In this document: one piece after another, positions 25,405-51,984 of the stretch | Layout of the letters: each line of letters starts with the position of its first letter | Numbering within the stretch: position 1 is the stretch's first letter | Origin: Deltaproteobacteria bacterium | GTDB lineage: Bacteria > Desulfobacterota_D > UBA1144 > Nemesobacterales > UBA2774 | Direction: 5' to 3' | Length of the DNA: 64,000 bases | NCBI GenBank assembly: GCA_040223695.1 | Contig: JAVKFU010000015.1 | Span: 632,692-696,691 of the forward strand | Notes under the pieces: model-generated | What the model was told of the DNA's origin: nothing | What the model saw: the letters and a program-made list of their open reading frames with translations, nothing else | Databases searched by the model: none | Position numbers and translations under genes: made by a program

Positions 25405-27006
25405 ATGTCTTCAGAAATAGTCAGATACATAAACAAAAAAGACGCCGAACTGCTTCATGAAATAGAACTAGCAGCTAACCAATCAGATCACGACACAGCT
25501 CTAAGATTAACAGAAGACAGACTCGCTAAACCTATCGATTTGTCTCGGCCATCAGAAAGACTACTTAAAGGATCACTAGCCGGTTGGCTAATTGACATAG
25601 GGACTGAATCCGGACAGGAACAAATTGTTAAAAAAGGTCTTTCTATCTTGGAGAATGAGGAGGCGGTCCTTCGTAAAAATGTAACTCAAGCCAGCTATGA
25701 TTATAATATTGGAAACGCTTATAGTTCATTATTTGACCTTAAAAAAAGTAAACCTGGTTTCAAATTAAATCCATCCGAAATCCAAGACATCGTTAAGAGT
25801 AAATCTCGATATTGGAGAGCTTACAAATCCCTACAAACACACGATAGAGCGTTCTGGGCAAAGTTGTGGGTCAACCTTGGTAATTGTTTGTTAAAATGCA
25901 ACCGAGTTGTAGAAGCGATTATATACTATGATGATGTAATTACTGAATATCCGAAATTTCCACAGGCAAATGCAAGCAGGGCTGATGCCTTACTCAAATT
26001 AAATGAAATATCAGATACCTATTCAATCAATTTACTCGCTCAAGCGATTGAGGGGTATTCAGTAGCAAGCGATTTTGCAGATACATTGTACAATCGTCAA
26101 GCTTGGCATATGCGCTCAGAATTACTGAAACAAAAATTATTAGAACATGGATACGACAGCAAAAATATAGAACATGAAACTTCCGAAACTGAATCAGAAC
26201 ATAATCAGCACTCAAAATATCGTAAATTTTGCTTAGAACAACATCTATCCCTTTCTGAGCATTCTATTTACTGTGGATGCGCTGGAGCTAGAAGTGATGA
26301 TCTCACAGTACCTAAATCATCCGGGCCAATAGGAGGTAATTTTGTTCCTAGAATGGAGTTCATATTAAATCGAGTTAAGTCAGAGTTTACATTTGCTAGA
26401 TTGATGTATTACCAAGCAGTACTTCCTTTAGAATCCGAATGGGACCTCTTGGAAGATGAAATCCGAATAACACAACTATTTGAGGATGAGATGCATGGCC
26501 CTCGCTCTGAAATGCTACGTCTGAGTTTTCGAAATTGTTTTGCAATACTTGATAAAATTGCAATGGCAATTTGCGAATTATTCGAATTAGCTCAGCCTAA
26601 GGAAGTATTATATTTTGAGAGCTTCTGGCGATCCCGATGGGAACGTATAAACCAAATCGATAATCCGGCAATAGTTGCCCTATACGCACTCGCTACAGAT
26701 TTAAATAGCAAAACAGGAGATTGGCCTGAGTTTAAAGAATGGCGTAATGCAATTGAACACAGAATCTTTTGTGTTCTTCAAAAGGAAAATTTTCACTCTG
26801 ACCCCTATTCTGTAGTTAATCAAAATGCAGGGGACCTAGTCGTTCCGTTAGATGTATTCCATCAGCGCGCTTTATTTTTATTAAGATTGACCCGTTCCGC
26901 TATATTCAGCTTTGTATTTTGTGTACGTTATGAAGGTTCTAAACTTACCGAAGGTGATCCTAGCAAAGCAATTACGCTAAGAGGCCGCAATGAGGAAAGC
27001 GGATAA
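25405..27006 (+). CDS. TPR-like + C-terminal HEPN-domain protein (LA2681-like; predicted RNase/defence protein)
   Basis: The C-terminal region contains RNAIEH, matching the HEPN Rx4-6H (RNxxxH) motif. The N-terminal about 250 aa are helical and TPR-like. The gene lies in a markedly AT-rich segment. Confidence 0.5.
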   Translation: MSSEIVRYINKKDAELLHEIELAANQSDHDTALRLTEDRLAKPIDLSRPSERLLKGSLAGWLIDIGTESGQEQIVKKGLSILENEEAVLRKNVTQASYDYNIGNAYSSLFDLKKSKPGFKLNPSEIQDIVKSKSRYWRAYKSLQTHDRAFWAKLWVNLGNCLLKCNRVVEAIIYYDDVITEYPKFPQANASRADALLKLNEISDTYSINLLAQAIEGYSVASDFADTLYNRQAWHMRSELLKQKLLEHGYDSKNIEHETSETESEHNQHSKYRKFCLEQHLSLSEHSIYCGCAGARSDDLTVPKSSGPIGGNFVPRMEFILNRVKSEFTFARLMYYQAVLPLESEWDLLEDEIRITQLFEDEMHGPRSEMLRLSFRNCFAILDKIAMAICELFELAQPKEVLYFESFWRSRWERINQIDNPAIVALYALATDLNSKTGDWPEFKEWRNAIEHRIFCVLQKENFHSDPYSVVNQNAGDLVVPLDVFHQRALFLLRLTRSAIFSFVFCVRYEGSKLTEGDPSKAITLRGRNEESG

Positions 27007-29700: not shown

Positions 29701-29995
29701 ATTCAGAATGTTATTTTTTTACTTTTCCCGACATCACAGAATTGGTGTGAAGAAAATCGCTTGTTAATGCGTTAAGAAATATTTTAGGACGATTCCGAAC
29801 AAGCGAGGAATCGGACGCCCTACGCTATATACAATAATGTTCACATTCTTGCCTCAGCTAACCGCGAACTAATCAAGGAGGAATTAAAACATTTTAGCGT
29901 TAACATGAGATTTTTAGCCATATTCTGTGGAGTCGATGATTTTTGCTTCTTTTCATCAAGGAAAAGAAGAATCTATCTTTGCCTTTTAGTCGCTA
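29701..29995. repeat. modular composite intergenic repeat (modules B-C-D), copy 1
   Basis: Contains tcccgacatcacagaattggtgtgaagaaaat, ggacgattccgaacaagcgaggaatcggacgccc and ggaattaaaacattttagcgttaacatgagatttttagcc...gatttttgcttcttttcatcaaggaaaagaag. All three modules are shared with copies at about 34.96, 45.76 and 63.76 kb. Confidence 0.8.
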
Positions 29996-30091: not shown

Positions 30092-33000
30092 TCAATTCAG
30101 TCTCTTCGCCCCCGCATCCTGTATCGCGCTCCTCAGTCTTCCGCCCTGCCGTATGCTCCTCACCAGCATGTTCTCTATCTCGGTCCCTATCGACGCCGCC
30201 GTAGCCCCCGAGCCTCCGTTCACGTTCACGTTGATATCCACATGCATCTCGCCTGAGCCTCCCTCGTCTCCGCCTATCCTCTCGACAAACCTGCTTAACA
30301 GTCCGTCCCCTGTGCCTATACTCTCACGGAACTGGTCCGCAAGCCCCGGCCCACTCGCCACAGCGCTCACGAACTGATTTATCAGCCCGGCCCTCAGCTG
30401 CACGAGCTGGTCCTCGGTCAGCACGGCCTCCCTTCCGTGCAGCACCGCAAGCGTCCCCCTGCCGAAGTCCCGTATCAACCCTCCCGTGCCCTCGGCGAAA
30501 CCCTGCACGTTCTGCAGCACCGACTCTATCGACCTCAGCACCACAAGCTGCTCGTCGTTTATACCCGCTATCGCCTGAAGTCCCTCGATCTCGTTATCGA
30601 ATCCGAACTCGCTCACTTCCTCGAGCTGCGCAAACCTCTCCTCCAGTATCCTTATATACTCCCCGCGTATGAACTCAAACAGCTCTATCAGCCTCTGCGA
30701 CGCCTGGAATGTATTCTGCGCCGTCTGCTCCCCTATGGCCGACAGCCTGTCCTGCAGCGCCTCTATCCGCGCGTCTATCCGCTCGATCTGCGCGTTCTGC
30801 TCCTGGGTCAGCCTCTCTATCTCGGCGTTTATCTCCTCTACTGACCGCCCCCTCGTCTCGGTCAGCTCCGCAAGCGCGTCGAGCCCTCCTGTTACCTGAT
30901 CGAATATAGCCACGAACTCGGGCGAATTCACTCCGAACGCGTCCCCGGCCACGTCGAACAGGGTTTTGAACGCGTCCTCGAGCCGGGCTACGATCTCGAC
31001 CTGCCTTTCGGGATCTACTGTACCGGCAAGCTCCTGCTGAAGCTGCGCAATATTCGACTGTAGCGCGTTTACCTGCTCCACTCCCGTGAGCACCGACTCC
31101 GGGCTGAACAGTATCGAGTCGAGCGTACGCCTTATGGATTCCGCAAGCGACGCGAACTCCTCCGCCAGCCTCAGCTCCTCGTTAAGCGCGTCTATACGCT
31201 CGTCAAACGCCTCCTGTATCCGCTCCTTCTCCTCGTTAAGCCCGTCTATTCTTCTCTCTATCGCCGCTCTTTGCGCCTCGGCAGCCCTTCGGGCCGCTTC
31301 CTGCCGCGCCTGAAAAGCCGCCTGCTCTTCGGCGAGCAATTGGTTCCCCAATCCCGCTAGGTCGTCCAGCAGCGCCTCCTGCTCCGAAAGCGACAGGTTC
31401 TCTATATTGTCCGTAAAGAAGCCCTGCACCTGCCCAATCGCCGTATTGAGGAACCCGGTCAGGTCCACTGAGCTTCCGCCGAATCCCGCGATAGTGCTGT
31501 TAAGCTGGCTTATCTTCCCAATCAGGCTCGATATGGAGCTTACGATTTCCGACGTCAGCGACAGTATCGCGTTTCTCAGCTCGACGTAGTTCTGCACCGT
31601 CTCCGGGTCAAGCTCTGCGTTCTTGATTAATTCCCCTAGCTCTTCCGTCAGTTGATCAATGGACGGCACGGCGTCGAATCCGAGCGTCCGGGAGAGCGAA
31701 TTTACGGAATTAATAGTCGTCCCTATCGCGTCATTTATATTCCCCTCTACTATGTTGAACGCATCGACAAAGGCGTTCAGATCGGCAAGCAGATCCTGCC
31801 CCACTGCCGCTCTCGCCTCCCTCGACCCTGCGCTCTCGAATTCCCGGAATCTCTCGTCGAGGAACGATGCCGCCGCATCGGGCAGTACCCCGAGCGACTC
31901 GAACATGGTCTGCAGGAATCCGTCCACCGCGAACAGGAACTTCGCCTGTATCTCCCCGTTTATAAGCTGATTGAATTTCTCCGCTATCTTCTTCCCCTTG
32001 GCGTCAAACTCGAAAAGCCTCTCCCCCGCGACTACCGTCTCCGTATCAAGCTCCGTATTCAGAAGCTCGTCCGTGAGCTTGTCCGCGAGGTCAGCCGGAA
32101 GCTTGTTGATAATATCCAGAAGGTTATTTACTGCCCCCTGTATCGCGTCGCCTAGAATCTCCTTTATCTTATCCGAGCCGCCAACGCCCAAACCGGCGCT
32201 TCGCTTTACGGATATGTCTATTATGTCGTTTATCAGGGTATCGGTGTCGAGCAGTTCGGATATAAACGCCGCCCTGCGCTCGCCTTCTTCTTTTATGCTG
32301 TCAAACTCTATGTCCAGACGAGGTGTCTTCTTGAATAAGCCGGATAGTAATGGGATGGCTAATGCCGCGGCAACGGCAACTGCACCGAGAATTGACAAAG
32401 CTCCACCTATCCCGCCAATACCTGCAAGAAATCCGGTTGATGGAAGCTCCCCGGCAGCTAAAGTCCCTACACTCACTCCACCGGTCAATCCTCCGACACC
32501 GAGACTTCCTGGCACAGCTGTAGCGGGTATTGTTGCAGCCGCTCCGCCTGCAAATCCAAATAGACCTGCAATTCCGGAACCGCCACCTAATATATCTCCA
32601 ATACTTCCGCCTATACCACCAACACCGCCAACAATATCTGCGCTTCCTCCAGCGCCTCTGGCACTTCCTGCCAACCCGAACAGTGCCCCAATACTTACCA
32701 CAATCTGCTTTGTGACAATCGCCGCAACAAGGTCGAGAAACGACCTGAGTATCGCCTCAAAAGCCTGCTTCACCAAGTCCTTTAAATCCTCAAACTTCCC
32801 GGTCAGCACGTTGAAAAATAAGTCGGAGAAATTCTGACTCATCTGGCTGAGTGTGTTAGCAAAGAAATCCGCTATGAGTTCACTATTCGACCCTACGGAT
32901 TCAACAAAATCCTCGAACCCCTGTTTTATTCCCTCAAAGAATCCGCCAGATTCATTCAGGTTTTCCACTCGCTCCGAAAACTCATCTAACCCCCCATCCG

Positions 33001-34027
33001 CCGCCGTTTGAGCCGCAGTATCTACACCCTCCACACTCGTGCTCATCGTGTCTATAGACTTGCTTGCTTGTCCGGTCTGGTCTATCACACCTTGAAGCCC
33101 GTCTTGACTTAGGTTGTTGGTAGATTCTGTAACATCCTCAGTAACACCGAGAAGTTCCCCCAACTCTTCTTTCGTATGCCCGAATATTACTGCCCCTTCC
33201 CCCGCGTTTTTAACTAAATCAACAAGAGATGTCGAAAATTCACCCTGCGCTGTAGTCCCTTCCTTCATCGCCGCAGACTGCTCCAAGGCCGATTCTCTAG
33301 CTTTATCGTATTGCAGACTAAGACCCTGTAATGTCAGACGGAGGGTCTTAAAACCCCTGTCTTGTTCATCAATTGCCCTTTGTAATTGCGTTGATACTGA
33401 TGGTCCAATAAATTCCTCTAAGCCACGACGTTGAAAATCCTCAACTTTTAGGTCAGGAATGTCAACCGTTAATTCAGGAATTTCTATACCCTCGATTTTA
33501 CCAAATTCTTCATTCAAATCACTCTGTAGCGCTTCTCTATATGCCTGCGCTAACTCTTCAATTGTTCTTCCTTTCGCAAGAAATTGTTCAAATTGTCTTT
33601 TAGCTATTTCTTGCAAATTACCTTCAATAGGTTCTGCTTTTTGGGGATTAACAAAAGGTCTTAGATCTACTGGCAAATCAACTATCACGCTTTCATTAGT
33701 GAACGGTTCCAGAATATCTTTAATAAGCAAGTTGATATTATGACCAATTTCCGCAGCCTGTTCACCACCAATCAACTTTGCAGCGTTCGTTAAAATATTT
33801 CCAAATGGAGAATTTGTTTTAAAAACTCTGTCAAATGCAGATTCCGCTTGTTTCATTGACGATTCAACATCTTTATTAAACTTGAAAAAAGTAGATTCTG
33901 ATGTTTTAGTAATAAACTCAAATCCGTCTCTAAATTCTTCGAATGTACTATTAGCTGTCTTTCCTAATTGTATTAATTGCTCATCTTCTACAATAAACTT
34001 GACCGTAATTTCATTTATCTCTGCCAT
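30092..34027 (-). CDS. giant helical protein, phage tail tape measure protein-like
   Basis: 1311 aa with no signal peptide. Long coiled-coil segments. A central Gly-rich hydrophobic block, GGIGGSIGDILGGGSGIAGLFGFAGGAAA...ALAIPLLSGLF, is typical of tape measure proteins. An AT-rich promoter region lies upstream. Confidence 0.5.
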   Translation of the reverse strand: MAEINEITVKFIVEDEQLIQLGKTANSTFEEFRDGFEFITKTSESTFFKFNKDVESSMKQAESAFDRVFKTNSPFGNILTNAAKLIGGEQAAEIGHNINLLIKDILEPFTNESVIVDLPVDLRPFVNPQKAEPIEGNLQEIAKRQFEQFLAKGRTIEELAQAYREALQSDLNEEFGKIEGIEIPELTVDIPDLKVEDFQRRGLEEFIGPSVSTQLQRAIDEQDRGFKTLRLTLQGLSLQYDKARESALEQSAAMKEGTTAQGEFSTSLVDLVKNAGEGAVIFGHTKEELGELLGVTEDVTESTNNLSQDGLQGVIDQTGQASKSIDTMSTSVEGVDTAAQTAADGGLDEFSERVENLNESGGFFEGIKQGFEDFVESVGSNSELIADFFANTLSQMSQNFSDLFFNVLTGKFEDLKDLVKQAFEAILRSFLDLVAAIVTKQIVVSIGALFGLAGSARGAGGSADIVGGVGGIGGSIGDILGGGSGIAGLFGFAGGAAATIPATAVPGSLGVGGLTGGVSVGTLAAGELPSTGFLAGIGGIGGALSILGAVAVAAALAIPLLSGLFKKTPRLDIEFDSIKEEGERRAAFISELLDTDTLINDIIDISVKRSAGLGVGGSDKIKEILGDAIQGAVNNLLDIINKLPADLADKLTDELLNTELDTETVVAGERLFEFDAKGKKIAEKFNQLINGEIQAKFLFAVDGFLQTMFESLGVLPDAAASFLDERFREFESAGSREARAAVGQDLLADLNAFVDAFNIVEGNINDAIGTTINSVNSLSRTLGFDAVPSIDQLTEELGELIKNAELDPETVQNYVELRNAILSLTSEIVSSISSLIGKISQLNSTIAGFGGSSVDLTGFLNTAIGQVQGFFTDNIENLSLSEQEALLDDLAGLGNQLLAEEQAAFQARQEAARRAAEAQRAAIERRIDGLNEEKERIQEAFDERIDALNEELRLAEEFASLAESIRRTLDSILFSPESVLTGVEQVNALQSNIAQLQQELAGTVDPERQVEIVARLEDAFKTLFDVAGDAFGVNSPEFVAIFDQVTGGLDALAELTETRGRSVEEINAEIERLTQEQNAQIERIDARIEALQDRLSAIGEQTAQNTFQASQRLIELFEFIRGEYIRILEERFAQLEEVSEFGFDNEIEGLQAIAGINDEQLVVLRSIESVLQNVQGFAEGTGGLIRDFGRGTLAVLHGREAVLTEDQLVQLRAGLINQFVSAVASGPGLADQFRESIGTGDGLLSRFVERIGGDEGGSGEMHVDINVNVNGGSGATAASIGTEIENMLVRSIRQGGRLRSAIQDAGAKRLN

Positions 34028-34217
34028 TTCCAGTACCTTGATTAACGTATCGACAAATTAATCTTTCACTATACGTTTACTTTATTCCTTAGATAGATTT
34101 ATAGGTGTTTGCTTGCAATCCCTCTATATTTAGAACCCTTTATTTATATTGTTGATTAATGGATACATATATGTAATTACTTAACTAGACTTCATATTCT
34201 TATTCTTTTATAATAGC

Positions 34218-34544
34218 GTGATGAAAGAAATCTGCTCCAATTGTCTTTACACCGGTGAGTCCGGTCATAGCGGAAGAAATGCTTGCAGGTTCCCTTTGGC
34301 GGGCCTGCTATTGGGAGTGGGTGTAAACGGTATTACAAGCGTAATACCGGATAGTGAAACTTCCGGTTCCACGCTCGTACTCGTAATAATTACTATTGCT
34401 TGTTTATTTACCGCCTTCTATTTACTTTACAGGTGTATCAATAAGAGCAGGAGAGCATGTCCCAAGTGTAACTATGGCGATATGATTGAGATGAATACCC
34501 CGGAAGCGGACAAACTAGTGGAGCAACATAGCCTGAAAAATTAG
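34218..34544 (+). CDS. split zinc-ribbon membrane protein, paralog 1 of 4
   Basis: N-terminal CSNC, two TM helices, C-terminal CPKCNYGDMIEMNTPEADKLVEQHSL. Confidence 0.55.
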   Translation: MMKEICSNCLYTGESGHSGRNACRFPLAGLLLGVGVNGITSVIPDSETSGSTLVLVIITIACLFTAFYLLYRCINKSRRACPKCNYGDMIEMNTPEADKLVEQHSLKN

Positions 34545-34566
34545 TTTTATATTCTCAAATACAAAC

Positions 34567-34914
34567 ATGCAAAAACTTTGCCCAGAATGTAACTATATTG
34601 GATACGAATCCCGTGGACAGAAATCACTTTTAATATGGGGAATAGCTTTAACTATTTGGGGAGCAATAACACTACTTGGCGCACTTATGCTTTATTCCTT
34701 TTCCGTTAGGATACTTGCGTCAGTAATTTGGCTCTCATTTGGTGTTGTTACCTTATATTACTACATTCATTACCCAAACATATGCCCAAACTGCAAGCAG
34801 AAAAAAACCATGATCCCTCTCGACACTCCCAAAGCCCAGGCCCTAATTAAAGATCACAACCTGACTATCCCGCAAGAAACATCACAACAGTCCAGCCCCA
34901 AAACCACTCAATAA
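34567..34914 (+). CDS. split zinc-ribbon membrane protein, paralog 2 of 4
   Basis: MQKLCPECNYIGY..., two TM helices, ...CPNCKQKKTMIPLDTPKAQALIKDHNLT. Confidence 0.55.
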   Translation: MQKLCPECNYIGYESRGQKSLLIWGIALTIWGAITLLGALMLYSFSVRILASVIWLSFGVVTLYYYIHYPNICPNCKQKKTMIPLDTPKAQALIKDHNLTIPQETSQQSSPKTTQ

Positions 34915-34959
34915 CCGAACATATCTACCATCCTTTTTTATCTGTCATTCTGAATGTAA

Positions 34960-35245
34960 ATTAGAAATCTCGTCTTTGTATTACCCTTCTCGACATTCAC
35001 GGAATTGGCGTTAAGAAAATAGAATATTGAGGCGTAAAAATCTTTCCGGGACGATTTCGAGCTAGCGAGGAATTGGACGCCCTTTCCTATAAGAAATAAT
35101 GTAATTAGTCTCGCTTCACTAAACCACGATTCTAATCAGGGTTGAATTAAAAGATTTTAGCCGAGATAGCCCATTTTTAGCCACATTCCGTGCAGTCGGT
35201 GATTTTTGCTTCTTTTCATCTAGGAAAAGAAGAAAGATGATTTAT
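34960..35245. repeat. modular composite intergenic repeat, copy 2 (full length)
   Basis: About 85% identical over about 280 bp to the 45.76-kb copy. Confidence 0.8.
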
Positions 35246-35655
35246 CTTTTTCCCGCCCAGCCTGAACCTTTCGAAGAATGTCATTTAGAGCGCAGCCGAG
35301 AAATCTATTCATTTATCCTTTAGAGTCTGTCATTCTGAACCCTGTCCTGAACTCGTTTCAGGATCATTTCAGAATCTCGATTTTCATCTTTCAATCCTTT
35401 AATTCCCTCCTTAGTAAAAGGAAACGAATGCGAACGTGTGAGCATTTAGACGCCTTTAGTTAAAAGCACTTATGCCCATTATCTACCGGCACATAAACTC
35501 TTGGAATAAAATAGGGTGGATTTAAAATACAATATAAAAACCTCACCTACGCCGCTAGCCTATACTCCACTTCCTCTACATTAACCTTATTATCATATAA
35601 CTGAACGACCACTCTCCCTTCATCCTCAAAATCCCAACTGTGTTATAATTTCCTG

Positions 35656-36030
35656 ATGCAAAAACTCTGCACCAATTGCAATTTCATCGGCAAAGGTAAG
35701 CACGGCCTCTTGTCCGGCAATATCTATGTCGGAATAATAGAAGTAGTTGTGGCGGTAATTATACTCTTTACAGGCCAGAAGCTCCTTCAGTCTTTTATAT
35801 ACGGAGCCGTGGTCGCGGCAATAGTAGCAATAGCCGGACTGATAAATATTATGGACTCGTTCTCGGAGGGCCGGCTCTGCCCTAACTGCGGCAAGGACAA
35901 GATGATCCCGCTCGACACTCCCAAAGCCCAGGTCCTCATCCAAGAACACAACCTCACAGTCGGCGATAATGTCCCCCAAAACACGCAGAATGACCAAAAA
36001 CCAGACCAGTTTGAAGCCCCCAAATCTTAA
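35656..36030 (+). CDS. split zinc-ribbon membrane protein, paralog 3 of 4
   Basis: MQKLCTNCNFIGKG..., two TM helices, ...CPNCGKDKMIPLDTPKAQVLIQEHNLT. Confidence 0.55.
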   Translation: MQKLCTNCNFIGKGKHGLLSGNIYVGIIEVVVAVIILFTGQKLLQSFIYGAVVAAIVAIAGLINIMDSFSEGRLCPNCGKDKMIPLDTPKAQVLIQEHNLTVGDNVPQNTQNDQKPDQFEAPKS

Positions 36031-36214
36031 ATCCATCTCTTAACTTCCATTCATAACCAACTATTATTCCAACATATTTATAGTAACACTGCAATACTTC
36101 GACCCACCTTTGCAACCACAGCGCCACAACCCCGCTTTTGTTTTTTTCATTCCCCCCCTTAGAAAAAGGGGATACAGGGGGATTTTTCCTATTTCTTATT
36201 CCCTAATGCCTTTT

Positions 36215-36395
36215 CCTTTCCCGACATTCACAGAATTGGCGTTAAGAAAACAGATTATCGAGGCGTGAAAATCTTTTAGGAATGGGGCTGAATTAACAGA
36301 TTTTAGCCGAGATGGTCTGTTTTTAGCCAAATTCTGTTAAGTCGATGATTTTTGCTTCTTTTTATCAAGAAAAAGAAGATATAATTTTTTGCTTT
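36215..36395. repeat. modular composite repeat, partial copy (modules B+D)
   Basis: Contains cccgacattcacagaattggcgttaagaaaacag...gatttttgcttctttttatcaagaaaaagaag. Confidence 0.7.
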
Positions 36396-36522
36396 TTTCC
36401 CTTGTCACTACATGTCGGGTAAAACCTCTCGGCAATCTCAAACCCCCCTTATCCTGAGCCCGGTCAAAGGATAAATACATGCCCCGCTTTCAATCCCTCA
36501 CCCATCCATTATCCTATCCCTG

Positions 36523-36930
36523 GTGAAAAAACTCTGCACAAACTGCTTCTACATCGGATACGAAGACAGGTCCACACACGGGAGCTTCAAGACCGAGTCC
36601 ATCCTCTGGGCGGTTGCCTTTGTCCTCGCATTCACGGGCGTTTTCGAGTCCGACCTATGGCTGCCGGCAACCATAACATTCGCACTCGCCTTTTTCTATA
36701 CTCTGACCATCTTCAGGGTAAAGATATGCGTCTGCCCAAGGTGCGGCCGCGACTCCATGATCCCGCTCAAAACCCCCAAGGCGGAGGCTATAATTCATGA
36801 GCACCACCTCGTGATGCCCAGCGAATTCAAAAATCCTGCGCGCACGATCTTCGGCCTCACATTCCGCGACGCGCTCCTCATCCTCACCACCATCCTTATA
36901 ACCGTCATGCTCTACAACCACTTCACCTAA
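36523..36930 (+). CDS. split zinc-ribbon membrane protein, paralog 4 of 4 (GTG start)
   Basis: VKKLCTNCFYIGY..., TM helices, ...CPRCGRDSMIPLKTPKAEAIIHEHHL. An extra C-terminal TM helix is present. Confidence 0.5.
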   Translation: MKKLCTNCFYIGYEDRSTHGSFKTESILWAVAFVLAFTGVFESDLWLPATITFALAFFYTLTIFRVKICVCPRCGRDSMIPLKTPKAEAIIHEHHLVMPSEFKNPARTIFGLTFRDALLILTTILITVMLYNHFT

Positions 36931-36939
36931 CTACTCATT

Positions 36940-37900
36940 CCCACTTAATCCTTTTTCTCCCTCTCTCTTGAGGGAGAGGGTAAGGGTGAGGGGGCACCTT
37001 CTGTTAAGTCGGCGATTTTTACTTCCTTTCATCAAGGAAAAGAAGATATAATTTTTTGACTTACCCTTGTCATTGCGAGCGCAGCGCGGCAATCCCAAAT
37101 CCGTCATGCTGAACTTGTTTCAGCATCTAACCCTTTGCCTTTCCCCTTCCGTCATTCTGAATTCATTTCAGAATCTAGAATTTTGCTTTTGCCTCCCTTT
37201 CACCCCTCCATAATCTCAAGAATCCTATTGACTCCATACCCCCAAATCATCTATAATAATTACGGAGGTAATTATGACAAGCGAGTGTGACAGCCCACCA
37301 GACAGGTTGGTCGAAAATTCGTGAGATCCGAAAATGGTGAGTACTTAAACAATCACCATAAATAATAGCTAAAACTAGCTATTGCTTAAAAAAAGCATAC
37401 AAACCAAAAAGGGAGCCACAGTGCTCCCTTTTCCATTTCTAGATATAGTAAACATTATTTGTCATTACAAACGAATGTGAGAAATCTAACCCTTGCTTTT
37501 TCTTCGTCATCGCAAACCGCAAAGTGGAACGACAACGTCGCATTATCGAAGTTTGTCATGCTGAACTACGATTTCGAGTAAGTAAGGAATCGGGTCCATT
37601 GACAAATTGCAACCGAGTAAGTATTCCCCTATCATGCCAGTCCAAACCCAAAACTTTCAGCATCTAGCCTTTCGTCTTGTCCATTCTGACATTCACATAA
37701 TTAGCGTCAAGAAAATCTTATGTTGATGCGTCAAAATGTTTTGGGCCGGGGCGGAATTAAAACATTTTAGCGTTAACATGAGATTTTTAGCAATATTATG
37801 TGCAGTCGGTGATTTTTGCTTCTTTTCATCTAGGAAAAGAAGAAAGTCTTTATCTTTTAGTCATTGCGAGTGGAGCATATTATGCGTAGCGCGGCAATCT
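36940..37900. repeat. about 1-kb non-coding cluster of stacked repeat units
   Basis: Contains the gagggagagggtaagggtgagggggc hairpin, a D-module end at 37.00-37.05 kb, gtcattgcgagcgcagcgcggcaatc, gtcatgctgaa, cattctgaattcatttcagaatc, a gtcatgctgaactacgatttcgag...gaggaatcgggtcc C-type unit, and a B+D composite at 37.69-37.87 kb. Confidence 0.75.
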
Positions 37901-37910
37901 AATCTTTTCA

Positions 37911-38240
37911 TTAAGAGCCAGCAATACCCCTACGGCGCCCGAGAGCCTCAATCCCTTCCCCCTTGGCGCCCCTTTTCATTTTCCTCTCCTGAGACTTCAG
38001 GGCAAACTCTCTGAACGCCTCATCCACGGCAATCACTACCCGAAACGCCCTCATCTTCGGATGCCCCTCGAACTCTAGCTTCTCCAGGTTATTCCATATC
38101 TCGGAATGCACCAGTGTGCCTACGGTCATCCCCTGCCCGTAGCGCTGAGACTGGCATAGCTCCCATAGAGATACCCACTCCCGCTGGTGCTGGGGGAGGT
38201 TCCGTATAAATCCTTCCGTCTCGTCCCCCGCCTTTTTCAA
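37911..38240 (-). CDS. downstream -1-frame ORF of a G/GT-like pair (candidate frameshift extension)
   Basis: Its frame is open upstream to about 38476, so it overlaps the last about 52 codons of the 38321..38890 ORF in the -1 frame. No conventional start or RBS of its own. Basic sequence. Confidence 0.4.
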   Translation of the reverse strand: MKKAGDETEGFIRNLPQHQREWVSLWELCQSQRYGQGMTVGTLVHSEIWNNLEKLEFEGHPKMRAFRVVIAVDEAFREFALKSQERKMKRGAKGEGIEALGRRRGIAGS

Positions 38241-38320
38241 TATGCGAAGCTCGTCCCTGTCGTTCTTTTCAAACTTGAGCCTGTTCTTCCGCCTGAGTTT
38301 CCTCTTTTCTTCGAGCTGAC

Positions 38321-38890
38321 TTACCCTGCGTCTGATTGAGTCTGCGCGGTACCTTCTTTTTTCCCCTTTGAAGCGGACTTCGAATCCCTCGTATATCCGC
38401 TCGAAGTACTCCCTGACTCTTCCAAAAAATTTTCCTCTTCTTTCTTCTCCTCCTTCGTGACCTTGCCGGCTATGAGCTCATAGCTCGACCTGAAGTTGCT
38501 AAGCAGGAAAGAGGACTTACAGAACTCATTGTAGAGCCATTCTTTAGTGTCCTTGTCGTATAGCACCCGCTCGCCCTTGTCGGTAAGCCCTGTAATGTCC
38601 TGTATGAGGTTATATACCAGGAACTTCGCGGCGCGCTTCGGGTCTCCTCCGAGAATCTTGAAGCTCCTGTCCTCGACAGTCAGGTCTTGCGTAAGGTCCC
38701 TTATCTGAGTAAGCCTCGCCACTGTCGGGTACGGACACTTGAACCCCACCTCGCGCCAGCCCTCGTCGTAACCCACCCACTCGCCTTTCTCGTCCTGGTA
38801 AGCGGGCCAGTCCTCATCCTCTATATCCCTGTAGGGATATATCGTCACATAATTTGATACATGTTTGGTCAAACTCTTAATTTCAGGCAT
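38321..38890 (-). CDS. acidic protein, phage tail assembly chaperone (gpG)-like candidate
   Basis: 189 aa, acidic (EDEDWPAYQDEKGEWVGYDEGW). Its 3' end holds T TTT TTG (about 38422-38428) and GGGGAAAAAAG (about 38355-38365), both inside the overlap with the downstream -1 ORF. Confidence 0.4.
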   Translation of the reverse strand: MPEIKSLTKHVSNYVTIYPYRDIEDEDWPAYQDEKGEWVGYDEGWREVGFKCPYPTVARLTQIRDLTQDLTVEDRSFKILGGDPKRAAKFLVYNLIQDITGLTDKGERVLYDKDTKEWLYNEFCKSSFLLSNFRSSYELIAGKVTKEEKKEEENFLEESGSTSSGYTRDSKSASKGKKEGTAQTQSDAG

Positions 38891-39130
38891 ATCCCCTCCT
38901 TTACACTATTGCACTATGTCATTCTGAACTTCGTCCTGAACTCGTTTTTCAGGATCTATTCAGAATCCAATCCCTTCCCGCTCATCCTGAGCCTAGTCGA
39001 AGGATGTCATTGAGTGGTTGCAAAGCAACAGCGGCAATCCCGTCTTTCTCTCGTCATTGCGAGCCGCAAAGCGGCGCGGCAATCTCGTCCTTTCCCCTCA
39101 ATCATTTAATCCCCTACCGGGAAAAGAAAA

Positions 39131-39178
39131 GCTAAAAAAGGGCTGTTAGCATTCATTTATTGAATATAAACAGCCCCT
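39131..39178 (-). terminator. rho-independent terminator after the 491-aa gene
   Basis: Minus-strand hairpin aggggctgtt-loop-aacagccct, followed by a TTTTTT run. Confidence 0.55.
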
Positions 39179-39190
39179 TAGCAATAATCC

Positions 39191-40666
39191 TTAAACAACG
39201 GCCTCAACCATATCCTCAACTGTTGGCTGGTTGTTCTTCACCGTAACTGTAATGTCCGTATTCGGCGCGCTGCTGGTATCAAGCCTGCCAAGGAAGCTCT
39301 TCTCATCCGTCACCGGGTCCTTCGAGCTCACGCCCGGATGCGGACTCCCCTCGAACTTGGCTTTGGGCACGCTCATTGTCACCTGATGGCTGTTGTCACC
39401 GATATAGGTCCATATAAAGTCGAGCTGCGTCTCTGTTCCCGCAACTGTCTTCTCAGCGAATTGCTGGCTTCCGTACTGATAAGTGAATGAGCCGCTTACA
39501 GATCCTTCCCCGGGGGTGATCGCGCCCTTGATCGGCGACCCTACGACGAAGTTACCCTGTATGGTATTCTCGATCACGAGACTCAGGTTTTCAAACTGGT
39601 TTGTGGTCTGCTCCACACTGTCCACCTGCACGCTCGATTCCCAATGTGCGTAAGGAATGTTTTCAATCGAGGCCGGAGTCCCGAATATGTTCTCTGACAG
39701 TATTTGAAATGCCTTCCCTACTACGTTCATATTGAGCTGCGGAAGGTCGGTCGGGTCCACGTTAAGAGTAAGATTGCTTACCTTGTTCCCCCTGATAAGC
39801 ATGAGCGATTCAATATCGGTAAACCTCAGAAGGAAACTGATACCCTCGGGAATGGTGGAGCCTCTATAAATCGTATGTGTGAAGGGTTTAATTACTTCAT
39901 CGCACGCCGCCCCGTTAGAGTGAGCCTTCCTGAGCCCGTTGGGATGAGCAGCCGAGTCCAGCGTAAGCTGCCCCGCAGCCGTGCTGCCTATCTTTACAAT
40001 CTCTGCGTCATTTCCCGTGCTTAACTGAGCAAACTCACCGGCTGCGAAACCAACTTCGGATGTCACTGATACCGTTGTATCTCCGGCGGAAGCCGCTGCC
40101 GACAAAGTCGTACTTGCCCCCGCTGTTGACGTTCCGACTGTGGTGTAATCACTATTCAAGGCGTGTAAGTAAAACAGCCCCACTGTCGCTATATCGAGCT
40201 CAACAGTCATATCCGCTCCTGTGTCATAGTTTCCCTCACGGAAGTTTGAAAGTACACGCGAGCCGGAGAGCGCCTGCGACCTCTGCAGATCTCTTCCGCC
40301 GGACGGTGTGAAGGACCTCACGTTACCTAGCTTGAACCAGTTATTAGCCGGGTCTACCTCAACCACAGCCTCCCCCGATTCATGCCTGTAGTTTATCTTT
40401 GTGTTCGCGTCGAGACTCACCGTCGTGCCAGACACGTAACCTGCATCCACCTTTACGAATTCCATATTGTTGTCGTTCCCGACCTTAAGAATATCCCCCG
40501 CCGCGATATTAGTATCGCTCGCTACCGTAACGCTAGTCGCTCCGGGGTTAACAGCTGCGGCAAGCGTAGTGGACGCTCCGCCCCCGACCGCGGCTGACGG
40601 CGTCACGCCGTTTACCTGTTCAATCTTGTACCAAATCTCCGCACTTGAGCCTGAAGCCTGTGCCAT
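39191..40666 (-). CDS. hypothetical structural protein with two tandem ~100-aa N-terminal domains; possible phage major tail protein
   Basis: 491 aa, no signal peptide. Thr/Ser/Ala-rich and beta-rich. An internal duplication is visible (ASTTLAAAV...TSVTVAS...AAGDILKVGND / ASTTLSAAASAGDTTVSVTSEVGFAAGEFAQLSTGND). The phage assignment rests on gene-order context only. Confidence 0.3.
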   Translation of the reverse strand: MAQASGSSAEIWYKIEQVNGVTPSAAVGGGASTTLAAAVNPGATSVTVASDTNIAAGDILKVGNDNNMEFVKVDAGYVSGTTVSLDANTKINYRHESGEAVVEVDPANNWFKLGNVRSFTPSGGRDLQRSQALSGSRVLSNFREGNYDTGADMTVELDIATVGLFYLHALNSDYTTVGTSTAGASTTLSAAASAGDTTVSVTSEVGFAAGEFAQLSTGNDAEIVKIGSTAAGQLTLDSAAHPNGLRKAHSNGAACDEVIKPFTHTIYRGSTIPEGISFLLRFTDIESLMLIRGNKVSNLTLNVDPTDLPQLNMNVVGKAFQILSENIFGTPASIENIPYAHWESSVQVDSVEQTTNQFENLSLVIENTIQGNFVVGSPIKGAITPGEGSVSGSFTYQYGSQQFAEKTVAGTETQLDFIWTYIGDNSHQVTMSVPKAKFEGSPHPGVSSKDPVTDEKSFLGRLDTSSAPNTDITVTVKNNQPTVEDMVEAVV

Positions 40667-40803
40667 ATTGTTCCACCTCCGGTTTTTATATAAAAAAGCC
40701 CGGAACGGCCTGAACCGCCCGGGCTTATATTTTTAATTTGTTATTAGTCATCCTGAATTTATTCAGGATCTAAACTTTTATGATCTAATCCGCTTTCATG
40801 AGA

Positions 40804-41931
40804 CTAGTAATTGATAATCTTCCCGTTCTCATCCCATCCTGTAGTCCTCTGATACTGGCTTTGAAAATCATTACGCCAACTGTCGTTCCACTTCCAGTCG
40901 CCGCTTTTTATCTTCCACGTGTTATAGTCCACACTGTTGTCAGCCGATTCGGCATCGAAAACTTCCAGCGCAGCTACACCGGGGTTAGCGCTCTGGAAAT
41001 AGTTATTTTGAATCTCATTATTCGAACTCTTCCATATGCCCAGATGAGTATGGCTCGTATCGTCTGTTGAAGGATACTTTTCAAGTATAAATTTATTATT
41101 GGTAATTCTAGAATTTCGCACATGATGATATATGGCCATTCCCCAGGAATTATCCTCGATCAGGTTTTTTTCGATATCCAGATTTTCTATCCAGGTTGAG
41201 CATTTCGAGCCGTTCATCTGAATCCCCCTGCCCCCGTGATTTCGTATTACGTTACCGCGAATAGCAACTCCGGAAATCCCCTTGCACTCGAAATCAGATA
41301 GATATATGCCGTGGCAGTGTTTGGGACTCGAGCCCCGCCAGTCCTTGTTGTAGCACTCCCCTTTTCCAGTCCCGTTCGACTCTATTATGTTATTTTCGAT
41401 TGTTATATTATCAGTCGATATGATCAGGATTCCCTGATACGTGTTTCGGTGAATTTTATTATTCCGTATGATATTATTGCCTTTGTAAAGCTTTACCCCG
41501 TCCCAGCCTTTCATTACTTCAAAACCCTGAAACACGATCCATTCGGCGTCGATCTCGACCCTGTCGCCTTCGCCCTTTCCCGGAACGATAATAGGCTTAT
41601 GTCCGGGGTAGGCTTCGATTGTAATCGGTCTCAGACGTGTCCCGCTGTTTTTGACAACAATTTTTCCGGTATAGACACCGCCTATTACCCTGATAATATC
41701 ACCCGGGACTGCTGAATCGACAGCTCCCTGTATGGTTGTGTAATCGCCGTTAGCGCCCGGCGCAACTATCTTCACAGATGGCAAGCGCGCACCTGCTGAT
41801 TCGACGCAATCAGCGCAGCTGGAAGGATCGGAGAGAGTGTAAACGCCTCCCACCACAGCCGGGGCCTGGTCGATAAAATATAGAGGTAAAATTGCAGTCA
41901 AGACAACTGACAGAATTGCCGTCGATTTCAT
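40804..41931 (-). CDS. secreted right-handed parallel beta-helix repeat protein (pectate-lyase-fold; possible depolymerase/tailspike-like)
   Basis: Signal peptide. Repeated NNxIxxN / GxxIxxN beta-helix coils: NNIIRNNKIHRN, ITIENNIIESNG, IRGNVIRNHGG. Confidence 0.6.
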   Translation of the reverse strand: MKSTAILSVVLTAILPLYFIDQAPAVVGGVYTLSDPSSCADCVESAGARLPSVKIVAPGANGDYTTIQGAVDSAVPGDIIRVIGGVYTGKIVVKNSGTRLRPITIEAYPGHKPIIVPGKGEGDRVEIDAEWIVFQGFEVMKGWDGVKLYKGNNIIRNNKIHRNTYQGILIISTDNITIENNIIESNGTGKGECYNKDWRGSSPKHCHGIYLSDFECKGISGVAIRGNVIRNHGGRGIQMNGSKCSTWIENLDIEKNLIEDNSWGMAIYHHVRNSRITNNKFILEKYPSTDDTSHTHLGIWKSSNNEIQNNYFQSANPGVAALEVFDAESADNSVDYNTWKIKSGDWKWNDSWRNDFQSQYQRTTGWDENGKIINY

Positions 41932-42204
41932 AATTTACCAGTTGGCTTCCAGACTTGGCGCTGGATAACCGTTTAATATTATAACTGCCAGACATAGTAA
42001 ATAGCTTTTTACGAATTTAATGCATCTTCCACCAGCCTCAGAACCCGACAAAGATTTTTATTTTCCCCTTCCTTTAACATTTTTTACCTTTTACGTTTTT
42101 AAAAATCATCCTGAATTCATTTCAGGATCTCGTCTTTTATAGATACATTCGCAATTTCCCGCCGGTTTCTAGAGCACAACGTCCGTCTATATAAAAATCG
42201 GCTA

Positions 42205-42906
42205 TTAATAAATAGTCCTCCAGGCATAAGCATCCGCCGCGTCCTTTGCGCAAACTTCAATAGTATCCTTTACTCCCGCATTACCTTCTACCATCCAAAA
42301 TTTGCCTCTTTCAGAAACGCTGCAAGTTGGTTTAACAACAGCCCCTCCGTTATCAGAAATTTTAATCCCCCCCGCTTCAACGGAAACCAGGCTCTTTGCA
42401 TAAATACTATCGGGTCTATTGGCGCCGGTTTTCCCAATATCGCCGCTTGCGTCAGTATTAAATATAAAATCACCATCGTAAATTCTAACTCCAATAACAC
42501 GAGAAATACTAGCTACAACAACTCCGTTACCCCAAAACTCAATATTGTTAACACCATTCATTTTAATTCCAGTATCGTCATCTTCGCCTACCAGTCTCTG
42601 GTCAAATATAATTATGTTGTTAGCACCACCTTGGCCTATAACTGTCTGGTCACTTGTATTGACTGAAAGTAAATTTATATCTGCTGTATTAGCTGCGTTC
42701 CTAGCTTTTATAAGAGTAGAGTTATTAGGACCTTTCAGTGAAGCAGAACCAGTTAGGTTGATATCGCCCGCCATACTCCCGCCGGATTTCGGCAGGACAT
42801 TGGAGGGAATTATAATGTCTGCTTCAATAATATCCTCATTGATCTGCGATTGAGCATAACTTGAAATAAGAATTATAAATACGATAACGAGTATAAATTT
42901 TCTCAT
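42205..42906 (-). CDS. secreted protein with tail-fibre-like SGGSMAGDINL motif
   Basis: Signal peptide. LPKSGGSMAGDINLTGS resembles the GG[ST]M[TA]G motif of phage tail fibre proteins. Confidence 0.4.
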   Translation of the reverse strand: MRKFILVIVFIILISSYAQSQINEDIIEADIIIPSNVLPKSGGSMAGDINLTGSASLKGPNNSTLIKARNAANTADINLLSVNTSDQTVIGQGGANNIIIFDQRLVGEDDDTGIKMNGVNNIEFWGNGVVVASISRVIGVRIYDGDFIFNTDASGDIGKTGANRPDSIYAKSLVSVEAGGIKISDNGGAVVKPTCSVSERGKFWMVEGNAGVKDTIEVCAKDAADAYAWRTIY

Positions 42907-42950
42907 GGATTTCTTTTTTACCTCAATTCACCATTCATTCCGAATGTCCC

Positions 42951-43676
42951 TCAGTTTTTCCAAACTCTACGAGTACTGCCTCCTAGCGGCTGCTTTATTT
43001 CAGCTGCTACAGCAGCCCAATCATTACTTGCACTACCGCTCCAATCATATGTTTGACTTGATGAACTTATGGCAGTAACCCCGCTGATGGACAAATCAGG
43101 TCCCTCTGCTATATTTGCTTGCTCTGTCTGTCCAAGATCAGCAGAAAAAGTCAATGCCGCATTGTCTTTATAACACCCTAATGCAATATTTGCACTTTCA
43201 CCGTTTATGGCATTAGGCACGTGAGTAAGAGCTATGCTTGTAGATGCAGCCGCTGTATTTGAAGCGGTTATATCAGGTGCTTCATCGGCTGCATCTATAA
43301 TCGAAACAGCTATCGCTATTCTGTCTGCTGAATTTGCGCTCAAATCGAATGAGACTGTATTTATGCCGATTGCCGGATTTGTAAGATAATAAATAGAACA
43401 AACACGTAAATTATTATTTATCTGGTCAACGGCTTCCGTCAAAGCAACACCGTTATAAGTTAATGAGCTCACAGATTTTGCGGAGGTACTCTCTACACCT
43501 ACTAACACTACCAGGTAATCACCGTTATTGTCATGATTAAAGGTAAGAGTTGCTTGGTTCGTACCCGATCTCTGAGCAGAGGTTACATTACCAATAGAGA
43601 TAGAAAAAGCACTCTCATAAGCTCCAAAAAACATTAATAATAAAAATAAAGCCATATTAACAATAAAACGCGTCAT
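42951..43676 (-). CDS. hypothetical secreted protein (paralog A)
   Basis: Signal peptide. The C-terminal ...GGSTRRVWKN is shared with the next gene. The two genes overlap by 4 nt. Confidence 0.45.
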   Translation of the reverse strand: MTRFIVNMALFLLLMFFGAYESAFSISIGNVTSAQRSGTNQATLTFNHDNNGDYLVVLVGVESTSAKSVSSLTYNGVALTEAVDQINNNLRVCSIYYLTNPAIGINTVSFDLSANSADRIAIAVSIIDAADEAPDITASNTAAASTSIALTHVPNAINGESANIALGCYKDNAALTFSADLGQTEQANIAEGPDLSISGVTAISSSSQTYDWSGSASNDWAAVAAEIKQPLGGSTRRVWKN

Positions 43677-44386
43677 TTCCAGATTCTCCTCGAATTTCCA
43701 CTTGCCTGCGGTTCAGGGATGGCAAAGGCTATAGCCCCCCAGTCTTTTGCGCCACTGCCAATTGTCCAATCCATAAGGAATGTCCCAGTGCTTGCCATGT
43801 TTTTTGTTGACGAGCCTATCTCCAAACTAAAGGAAAATGCTGCTGAATATTGTAAAGTTTGCCCTATTCCATCGGCCGTAAAACCTGCGTTGGCGTTATA
43901 CCCGACGCAATCTACAATTATAGAGTTAGCGTTTGTGGTCGTTACGCTGATTTGTGGGTCATTACTAAGTCCGGAGGCCGTTTGTGTCACATCCGGCGCG
44001 CCGTCATTCGCTCCATTTAAAGTCATACCACCCGCTGTGATATTCTGAGAAGCCGAAAGTGTTACTTCTATATTCGCTGTCGTTACGGTAGGGCGGCTTA
44101 GATAAGCAAACCATATAGTTGTACCGCCCTGAGTTACTGTCGTAACCGTCATTGCTTCGGAGGTGTTGAATTCGACACTAGATACTGTTGTGGTGCCGCT
44201 GTTATAAACTCCGCAGGCAGTCAAATAATCCTCACCTGTATTTACGACCTGACTCCATGAATGGGTCGTTGCCGTTCCATTATAAGTTGACGTAGTTCCT
44301 ACGGTCGGGACTTGCGAATAACTTGCAGTGGCAAACGGAAACAATACGACAAATAAAATAAATGTATATCCAAAAACTTTAGTCAA
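43673..44386 (-). CDS. hypothetical secreted protein (paralog B)
   Basis: Signal peptide. The C-terminus reads ...SGNSRRIWK. Confidence 0.45.
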   Translation of the reverse strand: MTKVFGYTFILFVVLFPFATASYSQVPTVGTTSTYNGTATTHSWSQVVNTGEDYLTACGVYNSGTTTVSSVEFNTSEAMTVTTVTQGGTTIWFAYLSRPTVTTANIEVTLSASQNITAGGMTLNGANDGAPDVTQTASGLSNDPQISVTTTNANSIIVDCVGYNANAGFTADGIGQTLQYSAAFSFSLEIGSSTKNMASTGTFLMDWTIGSGAKDWGAIAFAIPEPQASGNSRRIWK

Positions 44387-44416
44387 TTAACAAAACTCCC
44401 TTAATCTATTGGGAAA

Positions 44417-46040: not shown

Positions 46041-46096
46041 TTTTCATTATGAAGAGACAACCTATGCGACACAGCCTCATGGCAAAGCCGCCCCCC

Positions 46097-46818: not shown

Positions 46819-46862
46819 ATCACTACCCCTCCTTTATCTTTCACCCCCATCTTCTTTAAACG

Positions 46863-51642: not shown

Positions 51643-51984
51643 TTACTACTTAATATGGCCAGGTGCGCGTAAACAAACCCCCTCATCCTGAGCTTGTCGA
51701 AGGATGTAATTCTTTTGTCTTTTGCCTTTCCAACATTCACAGAATTAGCGTTAAGAAAATAGCACGAAGCAACCTCGTCTTTTCATCGCTCCGTAGGAGC
51801 CGCCTCTTGCCGCAAACAAAGACTTGTTTATACCGAACGCACTCACTGTGTGCAGTCGAAGAATGCCATATCAATTGACGTAAGCAAGCAAATATTTAGG
51901 TCTTATTGCATTTAAATCTGGTAATACCGGAATAAATTAGCCACCCTCGAAAAAATGCAATCAAGTGCCTCTATACACAAAAAA

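Follow-up and report, generated by a model that had tools for sequence, protein, structure and literature searches.

The 64,000-nucleotide stretch of DNA analysed here (the window) is positions 632,692 to 696,691 of contig JAVKFU010000015.1, from a metagenome-assembled genome (MAG) labelled Deltaproteobacteria bacterium, and its right-hand part is occupied by genes whose spacers are filled with copies of a modular, hairpin-forming repeat, referred to here by its modules as the B-D-E unit. An nhmmer profile built from 93 related copies located 12 full or partial loci at 29.7-64 kb, all of them intergenic, all on the + strand and spread over 34 kb, with no match on either strand at positions 1-29,700. 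A preceding inspection of the DNA without database searches (the sequence-only reading) had proposed an interspersed, modular, intergenic family with at least 12 full or partial copies, and both the family and the places where it put the copies were recovered independently by blastn, self-blastn, module scans (blastn-short) and the profile. With the copy flagged in that reading as query, blastn gave colinear matches of ~255 bp at 34981-35234 and 45774-46036 and shorter matches at every other place it had listed; in the self-comparison, repeated DNA was limited to the intergenic stretches at 29.7-64 kb and to an internal repeat of a gene at 7.3-8.9 kb. A 32-nt 3' motif, GATTTTTGCTTCTTTTYATCWAGRAAAAGAAG, occurs eight times in the window at no more than three mismatches, against none expected from 100 shuffles. 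An origin by chance from low-complexity sequence was rejected on the strength of the colinear copies and of the absence of tail motifs from the shuffles, and segmental duplication is ruled out because the neighbouring genes differ from copy to copy. The copies are more diverged than the 85% identity first suggested, the full-length ones being 76-77% identical to the flagged copy and the single modules 83-90%.

The unit consists of a long imperfect hairpin, in which B pairs with D around a variable apex, followed by the invariant single-stranded GATTTTTG and then by E, a 9-bp hairpin with the loop ATCNAG. In the alignment of the 93 copies, module B (CCGACATTCACAGAATTGGC, also given as CCGACATTCACAGAATTGGCG) forms an inverted repeat with GCCAAATTCTGTGCAGTCGG in the 3' part of D, and a second, inner pair of arms (AAAATCTTTT and AAAAGATTTT) is nested within them, so that the B..D stretch makes up a single imperfect hairpin of ~130 nt. 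The element had been described as lacking terminal inverted repeats, a description that has to be corrected for B and D; since the E tail lies outside these repeats, the ends of the unit are not symmetric. The unit measures ~170 bp without module C and ~250 bp with it. In three long copies C is a ~95-nt insert in the apical loop, and it is absent from the copies at 36.2, 37.7 and 47.1 kb; as it is missing from three core copies and occurs alone or in other hairpins (a further occurrence of this kind lies at 47.56 kb), C is a separate, optional module, found in the loops of companion hairpins of the type called R1 below, at the B-D apex and inside B. Four full-length copies of the same module order had been counted, of which three are colinear and the fourth, at 63760-64000, is rearranged, with C lying inside B.

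The most conserved parts of the alignment are single-stranded, namely GATTTTTG, GTTAAG and the loop ATCNAG, and GATTTTTG together with the E hairpin forms a constant tail of ~32-33 nt. In the copies at 36207-36396 and 45764-46025 the stem of E is present as a compensatory variant, CTTCTTTTT/AAAAAGAAG. Left flanks (187 aligned) show a run rich in T and C, and right flanks (165 aligned) an A-rich run followed by CCTTTC; no direct repeat was found among these flanks, and target-site duplications are lacking at the unit ends; the sequence-only reading had seen none either.

The fold was analysed on the same 93 copies, which come from related Dadabacteria-type MAGs. RNAalifold returned 46 pairs, 17 of which carry compensatory double changes where 7.1 are expected; 97.8% of cells were paired, as against 93.8% in shuffles, double-change cells numbered 165 as against 39, and none of 500 shuffles matched any pairing or covariation measure. 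When the registers were slid, only 40-53% of cells remained paired. E alone is represented by three covarying stems (TTTTC/GAAAA, TTTTT/AAAAA and TTTGT/ACAAA). Folding the module by covariation across copies had been suggested as a check, and the hairpin is backed by compensatory changes across the whole set. Paired columns hold G.T 64 times and A.C 16 times, and the + strand gives the more stable fold in every one of the 93 copies, with a mean of -50.8 kcal/mol compared with -41.9 kcal/mol for the complement. The B-D-E fold is under selection, and on one strand only. From the compensatory changes, the excess of G.T and the stability of the + strand it follows that the functional form is single-stranded and of + polarity, either RNA or single-stranded DNA.

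The uniform orientation of the copies had not been remarked upon before. Right of 30 kb all of the ~50 module matches are on the + strand, and left of 30 kb all three are on the - strand. GC skew, calculated in 1-kb windows, flips abruptly at 30.0 kb from +0.18 to -0.31, and the repeat array begins exactly at this switch, at a place where two genes converge. No convincing dif-like site was seen at the switch, which could mark the terminus of replication or one border of a segment that was inserted or inverted. Among 90 related loci the strand of the element is opposite in sign to the GC skew in 72 and the same in 18, and only one locus mixes both orientations. The skew of the element strand is negative within genes of either orientation, so that this skew is not a by-product of gene direction; in the window, roughly half of the copies point towards a gene of the opposite strand, at its 3' end. 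Element orientation thus follows GC skew, on the C-rich strand, and not the direction of genes. As a general rule, which may not hold in this phylum, the leading strand is G-rich and the C-rich strand is the lagging one; with the folded strand being C-rich, it would by this rule be the leading-strand template. The elements are also clustered, with few on the source contig to the right of 64 kb. In a related MAG (MFD06435.bin.1.47), a 224-kb contig syntenic with the window is dense in elements and a 2.79-Mb contig of the same MAG has few among the matches listed, a comparison that is indicative only.

The B-D-E unit is one component of a richer assemblage, as at least seven types of hairpin module are chained together and nested in the spacers (Table 1). 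R1 is GTCATTCTGAA..TTCAGAATC, R2 is CATCCTGAGC..GAAGGATG and R3 is GTCATTGCGAG..GCGGCAATC; a further hairpin, H (CACAC..GTGTG), is found mainly in relatives, among whose modules there is also a hairpin with a GTAG foot. Linkers between the modules are rich in T and C, like the left arm of E, and modules start after [G/C][T/A]CAT and tend to finish with ..TCAT. H hairpins bounded by TCAT..TCAT number 27, most of them splitting E (GTCTTTTCAT-H-TCAT-CAAGGAAAAGAAG), and all 27 are on the strand of E. These bounds, seen for H only, fit either a fixed target with a similar right end or a duplication of 4-8 nt. A single canonical-looking REP (repetitive extragenic palindromic sequence), GTAAGAGCGGCTTCCAGCCGC, with a GTAG-like (GTAA) foot and a hairpin, lies at 61506-61526 on the + strand of the window; related MAGs often contain this hairpin, and there the form with the GTAG foot is on the strand opposite to the E tails.

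Table 1. Repeat copies and companion hairpins of the window, by position (MFE, minimum free energy of the fold)
Feature	Position	Strand	Modules, basis and remarks
R2 hairpin left of the GC-skew switch	6665-6690	-	self-blastn, module scan
R2 hairpin left of the GC-skew switch	9193-9221	-	module scan
R2 hairpin left of the GC-skew switch	11129-11157	-	module scan
Full copy 1 (flagged)	29715-29985	+	B 29724-29760, C ~29787-29879, D 29880-29945, GATTTTTG + E 29938-29969; MFE -67.7, z -4.5
R1 hairpin (GTCATTCTGAA..), REP-like companion	34943-34974	+	module scan
Full copy 2 with C	34973-35251	+	B 34986-35022, C 35049-35142, D 35143-35208, E 35201-35232
Core copy without C (B, apical stem, D, E)	36207-36396	+	nhmmer E=1.8e-42; MFE -52.7, z -6.4
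Partial copy, D end and E tail only	36995-37062	+	blastn, motif, nhmmer
One R3 (GTCATTGCGAG..GCGGCAATC) and two R1, chained	37067-37176	+	side-by-side reading, module scan
C-type module in loop of GTCATGCTGAA..TTCAGCATC hairpin	37563-37640	+	side-by-side reading, module scan
Core copy without C	37670-37850	+	nhmmer E=4.2e-42; MFE -56.2, z -6.2
R2 (CATCCTGAGC..GAAGGATG) and R3	38981-39089	+	B-D-E element in same spacer of relatives
R2 hairpin, just upstream of full copy 3	45725-45758	+	module scan
Full copy 3 with C	45764-46025	+	blastn, module scan, nhmmer
R3 hairpin	46862-46900	+	module scan
C-type module in loop of GTCATTCTGAA..TTCAGTGTC hairpin	46918-47000	+	side-by-side reading, module scan
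Core copy without C	47036-47212	+	nhmmer E=1.8e-35
R3 and R2, just downstream of 47.1-kb copy	47226-47302	+	module scan
R2 and R3	49936-50027	+	module scan
Stand-alone C-type module	50051-50102	+	blastn, module scan
R2 hairpin	51678-51712	+	module scan
B-only remnant	51715-51765	+	module scan, nhmmer
R1 hairpin	53561-53591	+	module scan
B-only remnant	53597-53639	+	nhmmer
3' two-thirds copy (apical stem, D, E; without B)	57949-58078	+	nhmmer E=5.7e-26
R3 hairpin	58083-58119	+	module scan
R2 hairpin	61155-61189	+	module scan
Solo E tail, H hairpin (CACAC..GTGTG) directly before	61259-61286	+	blastn, nhmmer
Rearranged copy, B split by C, then rest of B, D, E	63760-64000	+	C 63784-63866; E ends ~12 bp past the window

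Beyond the window, the E motif was found in at least 120 stretches of species-representative genomes. At least 105 near-full copies lie in 90 loci of nine Dadabacteria-type MAGs, labelled Dadabacteria, Thermodesulfobacteriota or 'delta proteobacterium', at a density of ~3 tails per 10 kb sampled; one related MAG has at least 57 E and at least 46 B modules in 185 kb sampled. The genes of these carriers are 65-85% identical to those of the window, which places the window in the same lineage. Five IMG/VR contigs and at least 67 metagenome stretches from the Joint Genome Institute also carry the element, in both Dadabacteria and Bacteroidota kinds. In the Bacteroidota (Chitinophagales, Sphingobacteriales and Saprospirales) the same 32-mer tail stands behind other long hairpins, which share with the Dadabacteria unit the outer stem (CGACnTTA.. 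/ ..AGTC) and an internal motif, GGCGTTAAGAAA / TTTTTAGCC; in most of these hairpins the written strand folds better, and no gene is consistently adjacent to them. Annotated phage and plasmid collections searched with the core copy gave no match, nor did a full-text literature search for the tail sequence and for Dadabacteria repeats, and the hairpin sequences of the window had no match in the supplement of PMC6006769.

The comparison of related genomes provides evidence of turnover. Between the tail-tube gene and the adjoining gene, the window has R1-R2-R3, two contigs of one related MAG (L066 and L114) have a B-D-E unit, and a contig of a third MAG (L037) has B, C and R1 modules; L114 differs from L066 by an additional linker-H-E segment inserted at the loop of E. 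The site 3' of a HpaB-like gene is occupied in four genomes, in each by a different subfamily, and one apical-stem subfamily of 16 copies is restricted to a single MAG, CAWGRW. Within the window there are remnants consisting of B only or of E only, and a copy reduced to its 3' two-thirds. From the spacer differences, the private subfamily and the remnants it follows that copies multiply, get replaced and decay.

What kind of element would behave in this way? By the searches made, which returned no match in Rfam or the literature and no transposase or integrase, this family of ~170-250 bp hairpin-forming intergenic elements is undescribed. Our favoured explanation, held with slightly more than even confidence, is that it is a non-autonomous DNA repeat of the REP/BIME (bacterial interspersed mosaic element) kind, one of several hairpin modules that fill the spacers of a Dadabacteria-type genome. 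On this view a trans-acting enzyme would copy or move the modules in the form of single-stranded DNA; it would recognise a hairpin with a short motif beside it (the E tail, or the foot [G/C][T/A]CAT), and its cutting and joining would take place at TCAT-type sites that hairpin loops expose. If the reaction were strand-specific and each insert recreated the target, modules would pile up head to tail and nest within one another in one orientation, and coupling to replication would fix that orientation for each replichore. Such a trans-acting enzyme, reading a hairpin and a motif on one strand, would explain the strand-specific fold, the nested arrays and the uniform orientation tied to strand asymmetry.

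The sequence-only reading had already drawn the BIME analogy, and among the systems compared it is the closest, the arrays being a mosaic of REP-like palindromes. Like REPs and BIMEs, the elements are high-copy, intergenic, imperfect palindromes present in tens to hundreds per genome, as shown by 12 loci in 34 kb and by the sampled MAG mentioned above; several sequence families share a genome and form mosaics with short linkers, here with nesting in addition; the recognisable unit is a single-stranded hairpin with a short conserved foot; and copies are kept at orthologous intergenic sites while subfamilies expand within genomes. REPs and BIMEs are mobilised by Y1 enzymes of the HUH type acting on single-stranded hairpins (PMC3333891, PMC6006769). 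The differences are nevertheless considerable. The main unit is longer (170-250 nt), asymmetric and provided with a constant tail shared between phyla, its orientation is tied to strand composition, and there is no GT[AG]G foot, B starting with CCGACATT and R1-R3 following GTCAT or CTCAT. Atypical REPs that lack the GT[AG]G foot and have weaker structures are associated with TnpA-Y1 subclass 2.6 (Bacteroidetes) and class 3, and occur in other phyla (PMC6006769). Inverted pairs are likewise missing, with the window array entirely on + and the mixed locus noted above a lone case among 90.

Two further groups of elements invite comparison. The IS200/IS605 insertion sequences, with PATEs (palindrome-associated transposable elements), their transposase-less derivatives, share the strand-specific recognition of imperfect hairpins and insert beside a specific tetranucleotide without a classical duplication, for which the TCAT..TCAT of the H inserts may be compared; a bias of orientation relative to replication (PMC3333891) is a further point of resemblance. 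They differ in having subterminal hairpins at both ends, where the present unit has a small conserved hairpin (E) at the 3' end only, and no remnant of tnpA or tnpB was found in or near any copy. Correia-type elements, known from Neisseria, and other miniature inverted-repeat transposable elements (MITEs), an analogy that had also been offered, are similarly small, non-coding and interspersed, with copies that have or lack internal segments, and the B and D arms (~20 nt) resemble inverted repeats near the ends, but for the E tail outside them. This analogy is not supported, as there is no target-site duplication, the unit is asymmetric and 12 of 12 loci are on one strand; nor is there a related full-length insertion sequence, and the modules recombine and nest.

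Several observations weigh against a REP/BIME-like nature. Firstly, no partner enzyme was found. The sequence-only reading had seen no transposase, and no Y1/HUH transposase, RAYT (REP-associated tyrosine transposase), integrase or reverse transcriptase was detected in the window, nor any recurrent enzyme of these kinds near the elements in ~1.5 Mb of loci; neither set of sequences yielded a RAYT matching the elements, or a REPtron, in which a RAYT gene has its own REPs on both sides. For the Y1/HUH enzymes, tblastn with approximate IS608, IS200 and E. coli RAYT queries and HUH..Y motif scans brought up no more than a RAYT-like gene, unrelated and flanked by a different hairpin, and, 7 kb from a tail in L230, the decayed remains of an IS200. 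Secondly, the family lacks both the canonical GT[AG]G foot and the arrangement in inverted pairs (REPIN). Thirdly, the 32-nt tail is identical in two phyla, which is unusual, REPs being lineage-specific. Fourthly, a strand-specific fold with many G.U-compatible pairs is also expected of an RNA. Fifthly, no clean pair of filled and empty sites was obtained for a whole B-D-E unit, so that mobility of the whole unit is inferred from the expansion of subfamilies and the turnover of modules. Finally, IS200/IS605 elements show an orientation bias relative to replication and use the lagging-strand template (PMC3333891), whereas the folded strand here is the C-rich one and, by the usual G>C rule, apparently the leading-strand template; in view of this opposite polarity the known mechanism is not directly transferable.

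The RAYT-like reading frame (187 aa, NHLH ... YIHYNP) is at 3630-4505 of a locus from a Chitinophagaceae MAG (L096). Its own hairpin, GGTCGGTG-AAGA-CACCGACC, stands three times on one side of it and twice on the other, which makes it a textbook REPtron, and two E tails in inverted orientation (1315-1348 and 1750-1783) are 2 kb away. Clustering of 1068 open reading frames (ORFs) from 246 loci produced no recombinase as a partner gene, and no protein family other than ordinary genes recurs near copies across phyla; the top clusters were secreted paralogues of the IPTL-CTERM type, LolA-like lipoproteins, tape-measure proteins, regulators and transporters. In L029, L115, L147 and other Dadabacteria-type loci, secreted paralogues with an IPTLSEWG-type C-terminal sorting signal stand in tandem with repeats in between.

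It is conceivable, if on balance unlikely, that Dadabacteria and Bacteroidota have in common an undescribed, strand-specific system of mobilisation whose handle is the constant tail. Such a system could act on single-stranded DNA or through RNA; it would carry varied bodies, insert into hairpin loops and, within a replichore, keep to a single orientation, on the opposite strand from IS200/IS605. If this were true, the system would represent a new class of bacterial non-autonomous element.

A likewise doubtful alternative is that the copies are multicopy structured non-coding RNAs transcribed from the + strand, in which the hairpin would be a variable body and GATTTTTG with E a protein-bound 3' handle; copying could proceed through an RNA intermediate, in the manner of a short interspersed nuclear element (SINE) that borrows the 3' tail of a partner retroelement. 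A conserved small RNA had been among the options of the sequence-only reading, and part of that proposal survives, as compensatory changes preserve a fold specific to one strand, pairs of the G.U-compatible kind outnumber A.C four to one, the single-stranded parts are the best conserved, and in the Bacteroidota the constant tail stands behind differing hairpin bodies. Priming of reverse transcription from a nascent leading strand, as in endonuclease-deficient group II introns, would put the RNA-sense strand on the leading-strand template, which would match the apparent placement here. The remainder of the proposal fares less well. No Rfam family was recovered, neither with Rfam 15 at gathering thresholds on the whole window nor at relaxed thresholds on the copies and six Bacteroidota loci, where matches were at chance level only (Flavo-1 matches in L050 lie elsewhere), and a scan for tRNA and transfer-messenger RNA found none. 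There is no consistent promoter or terminator and no T run after E; many copies are truncated or nested; and no reverse transcriptase was seen near any copy. Moreover, the orientation is uniform along the chromosome and unrelated to genes, which a trans-acting RNA does not need.

The same uniformity also speaks for an improbable third explanation, that the host selects the elements as polar structures for replication, repair or segregation (initiation or priming, fork pausing, gap formation or orientation), their direction relative to the fork being functional rather than a by-product of transposition. Orientation holds over tens to hundreds of kb and tracks GC skew, with the window array starting at the very switch of skew; one strand only folds well; and orthologous spacers remain occupied across genomes that are 65-78% identical in neighbouring genes. 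Some copies contain TAGCGT, which we take to be the CS-6 motif of plasmid single-strand origins. Against this stand the strong clustering, with no copies left of 29.7 kb and few right of 64 kb, the contrast between the dense 224-kb contig and the few copies, among the matches listed, in the 2.79-Mb contig, the many fragments and the module content of spacers, which is not conserved. In addition, the folded strand is apparently the leading-strand template, which is rarely single-stranded.

Less probable still is a role as cis-acting promoter, terminator or mRNA-stabilising cassettes. E. coli REPs are described in PMC3479197 as stabilising upstream mRNA. Two of the copies lie 145-424 bp upstream of zinc-ribbon paralogues, and in related spacers the upstream gene is co-oriented slightly above chance (102/170). 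The promoter cassette envisaged at the outset was based on module D preceding each zinc-ribbon paralogue, but an element stands before just two of these four genes. Of 170 spacers, exactly half (85/170) have their downstream gene in the same orientation as the element, and both neighbours are on the opposite strand in 40/170; in a consensus scan neither promoter-like sites (16 against 11.6 +/- 3.5 expected) nor terminator-like sites (4 against 7.4) were enriched; and the E tail is identical across phyla that use different promoter types. Scarcely credible, lastly, is an array of integron-like recombination sites (attC sites, or a CALIN, a cluster of attC sites lacking an integron-integrase) bounding cassettes: same-orientation sites spaced 0.7-8 kb apart, long imperfect single-strand hairpins defined by structure and variable at the apex, and a fold specific to one strand, apparently the leading-strand template, are all reminiscent of chromosomal integrons, but several sites often share one spacer, there are no RYYYAAC/GTTRRRY cores at the ends, no integrase in the window and no cassette organisation, and the intervening genes, of both orientations and including that of a 1311-aa phage tail protein, keep their order across species.

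The genes among which the repeats lie deserve a brief description. A phage-tail-like cluster on the - strand (30092-45109) encodes the 1311-aa tape-measure-like protein together with a tail tube protein (PF18906, 39191-40666), a protein of the beta-helix type and several secreted proteins that have no annotation. No capsid, terminase or integrase is seen with it in the window. L123, L242 and L047 have related clusters, each with two or three paralogues of the tape-measure protein, and IMG/VR contains some such clusters. On the + strand, 34218-36930 holds four tandem paralogous small membrane proteins of 108-135 aa, with repeat elements between the last three; each combines CxxC at the N-terminal end with CPxC..MIPLDTP at the C-terminal end and has two or three transmembrane segments, and Pfam gave no match for any of them. 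To the left of the array, an accessory region includes a TPR and HEPN_LA2681 protein (25405-27006), a possible defence or toxin component. A beta-propeller gene of the NHL / Vgb_lyase type lies at 7178-9073, and its blades give rise to the internal DNA repeat (7289-8905) that is the only other repeated DNA of the window. The copies themselves create many spurious ORFs of 40-140 aa, spread over every copy (for example 37736-38014, 45853-46411 and 46937-47287) with recurring peptides such as ..AVGDFCFFSSRKRRK.. and ..FASFHQGKEE.., which a gene caller would list as hypothetical proteins.

For the Dadabacteria-type genomes there is a practical consequence, in that these repeats break their assemblies. 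The wider interest lies in the contrast with what is known, as repeats of the REP/BIME type are understood almost only in the Proteobacteria, where they have a GTAG foot, are arranged in inverted pairs and are accompanied by a resident RAYT gene. Here a family from an uncultured phylum follows a one-strand rule that goes with strand composition, nests in loops and carries a tail identical to that found in a distant phylum. If its polarity is set by replication, the arrays would record strand-specific insertion of DNA, or insertion mediated by RNA, and would offer a handle for finding the enzyme.

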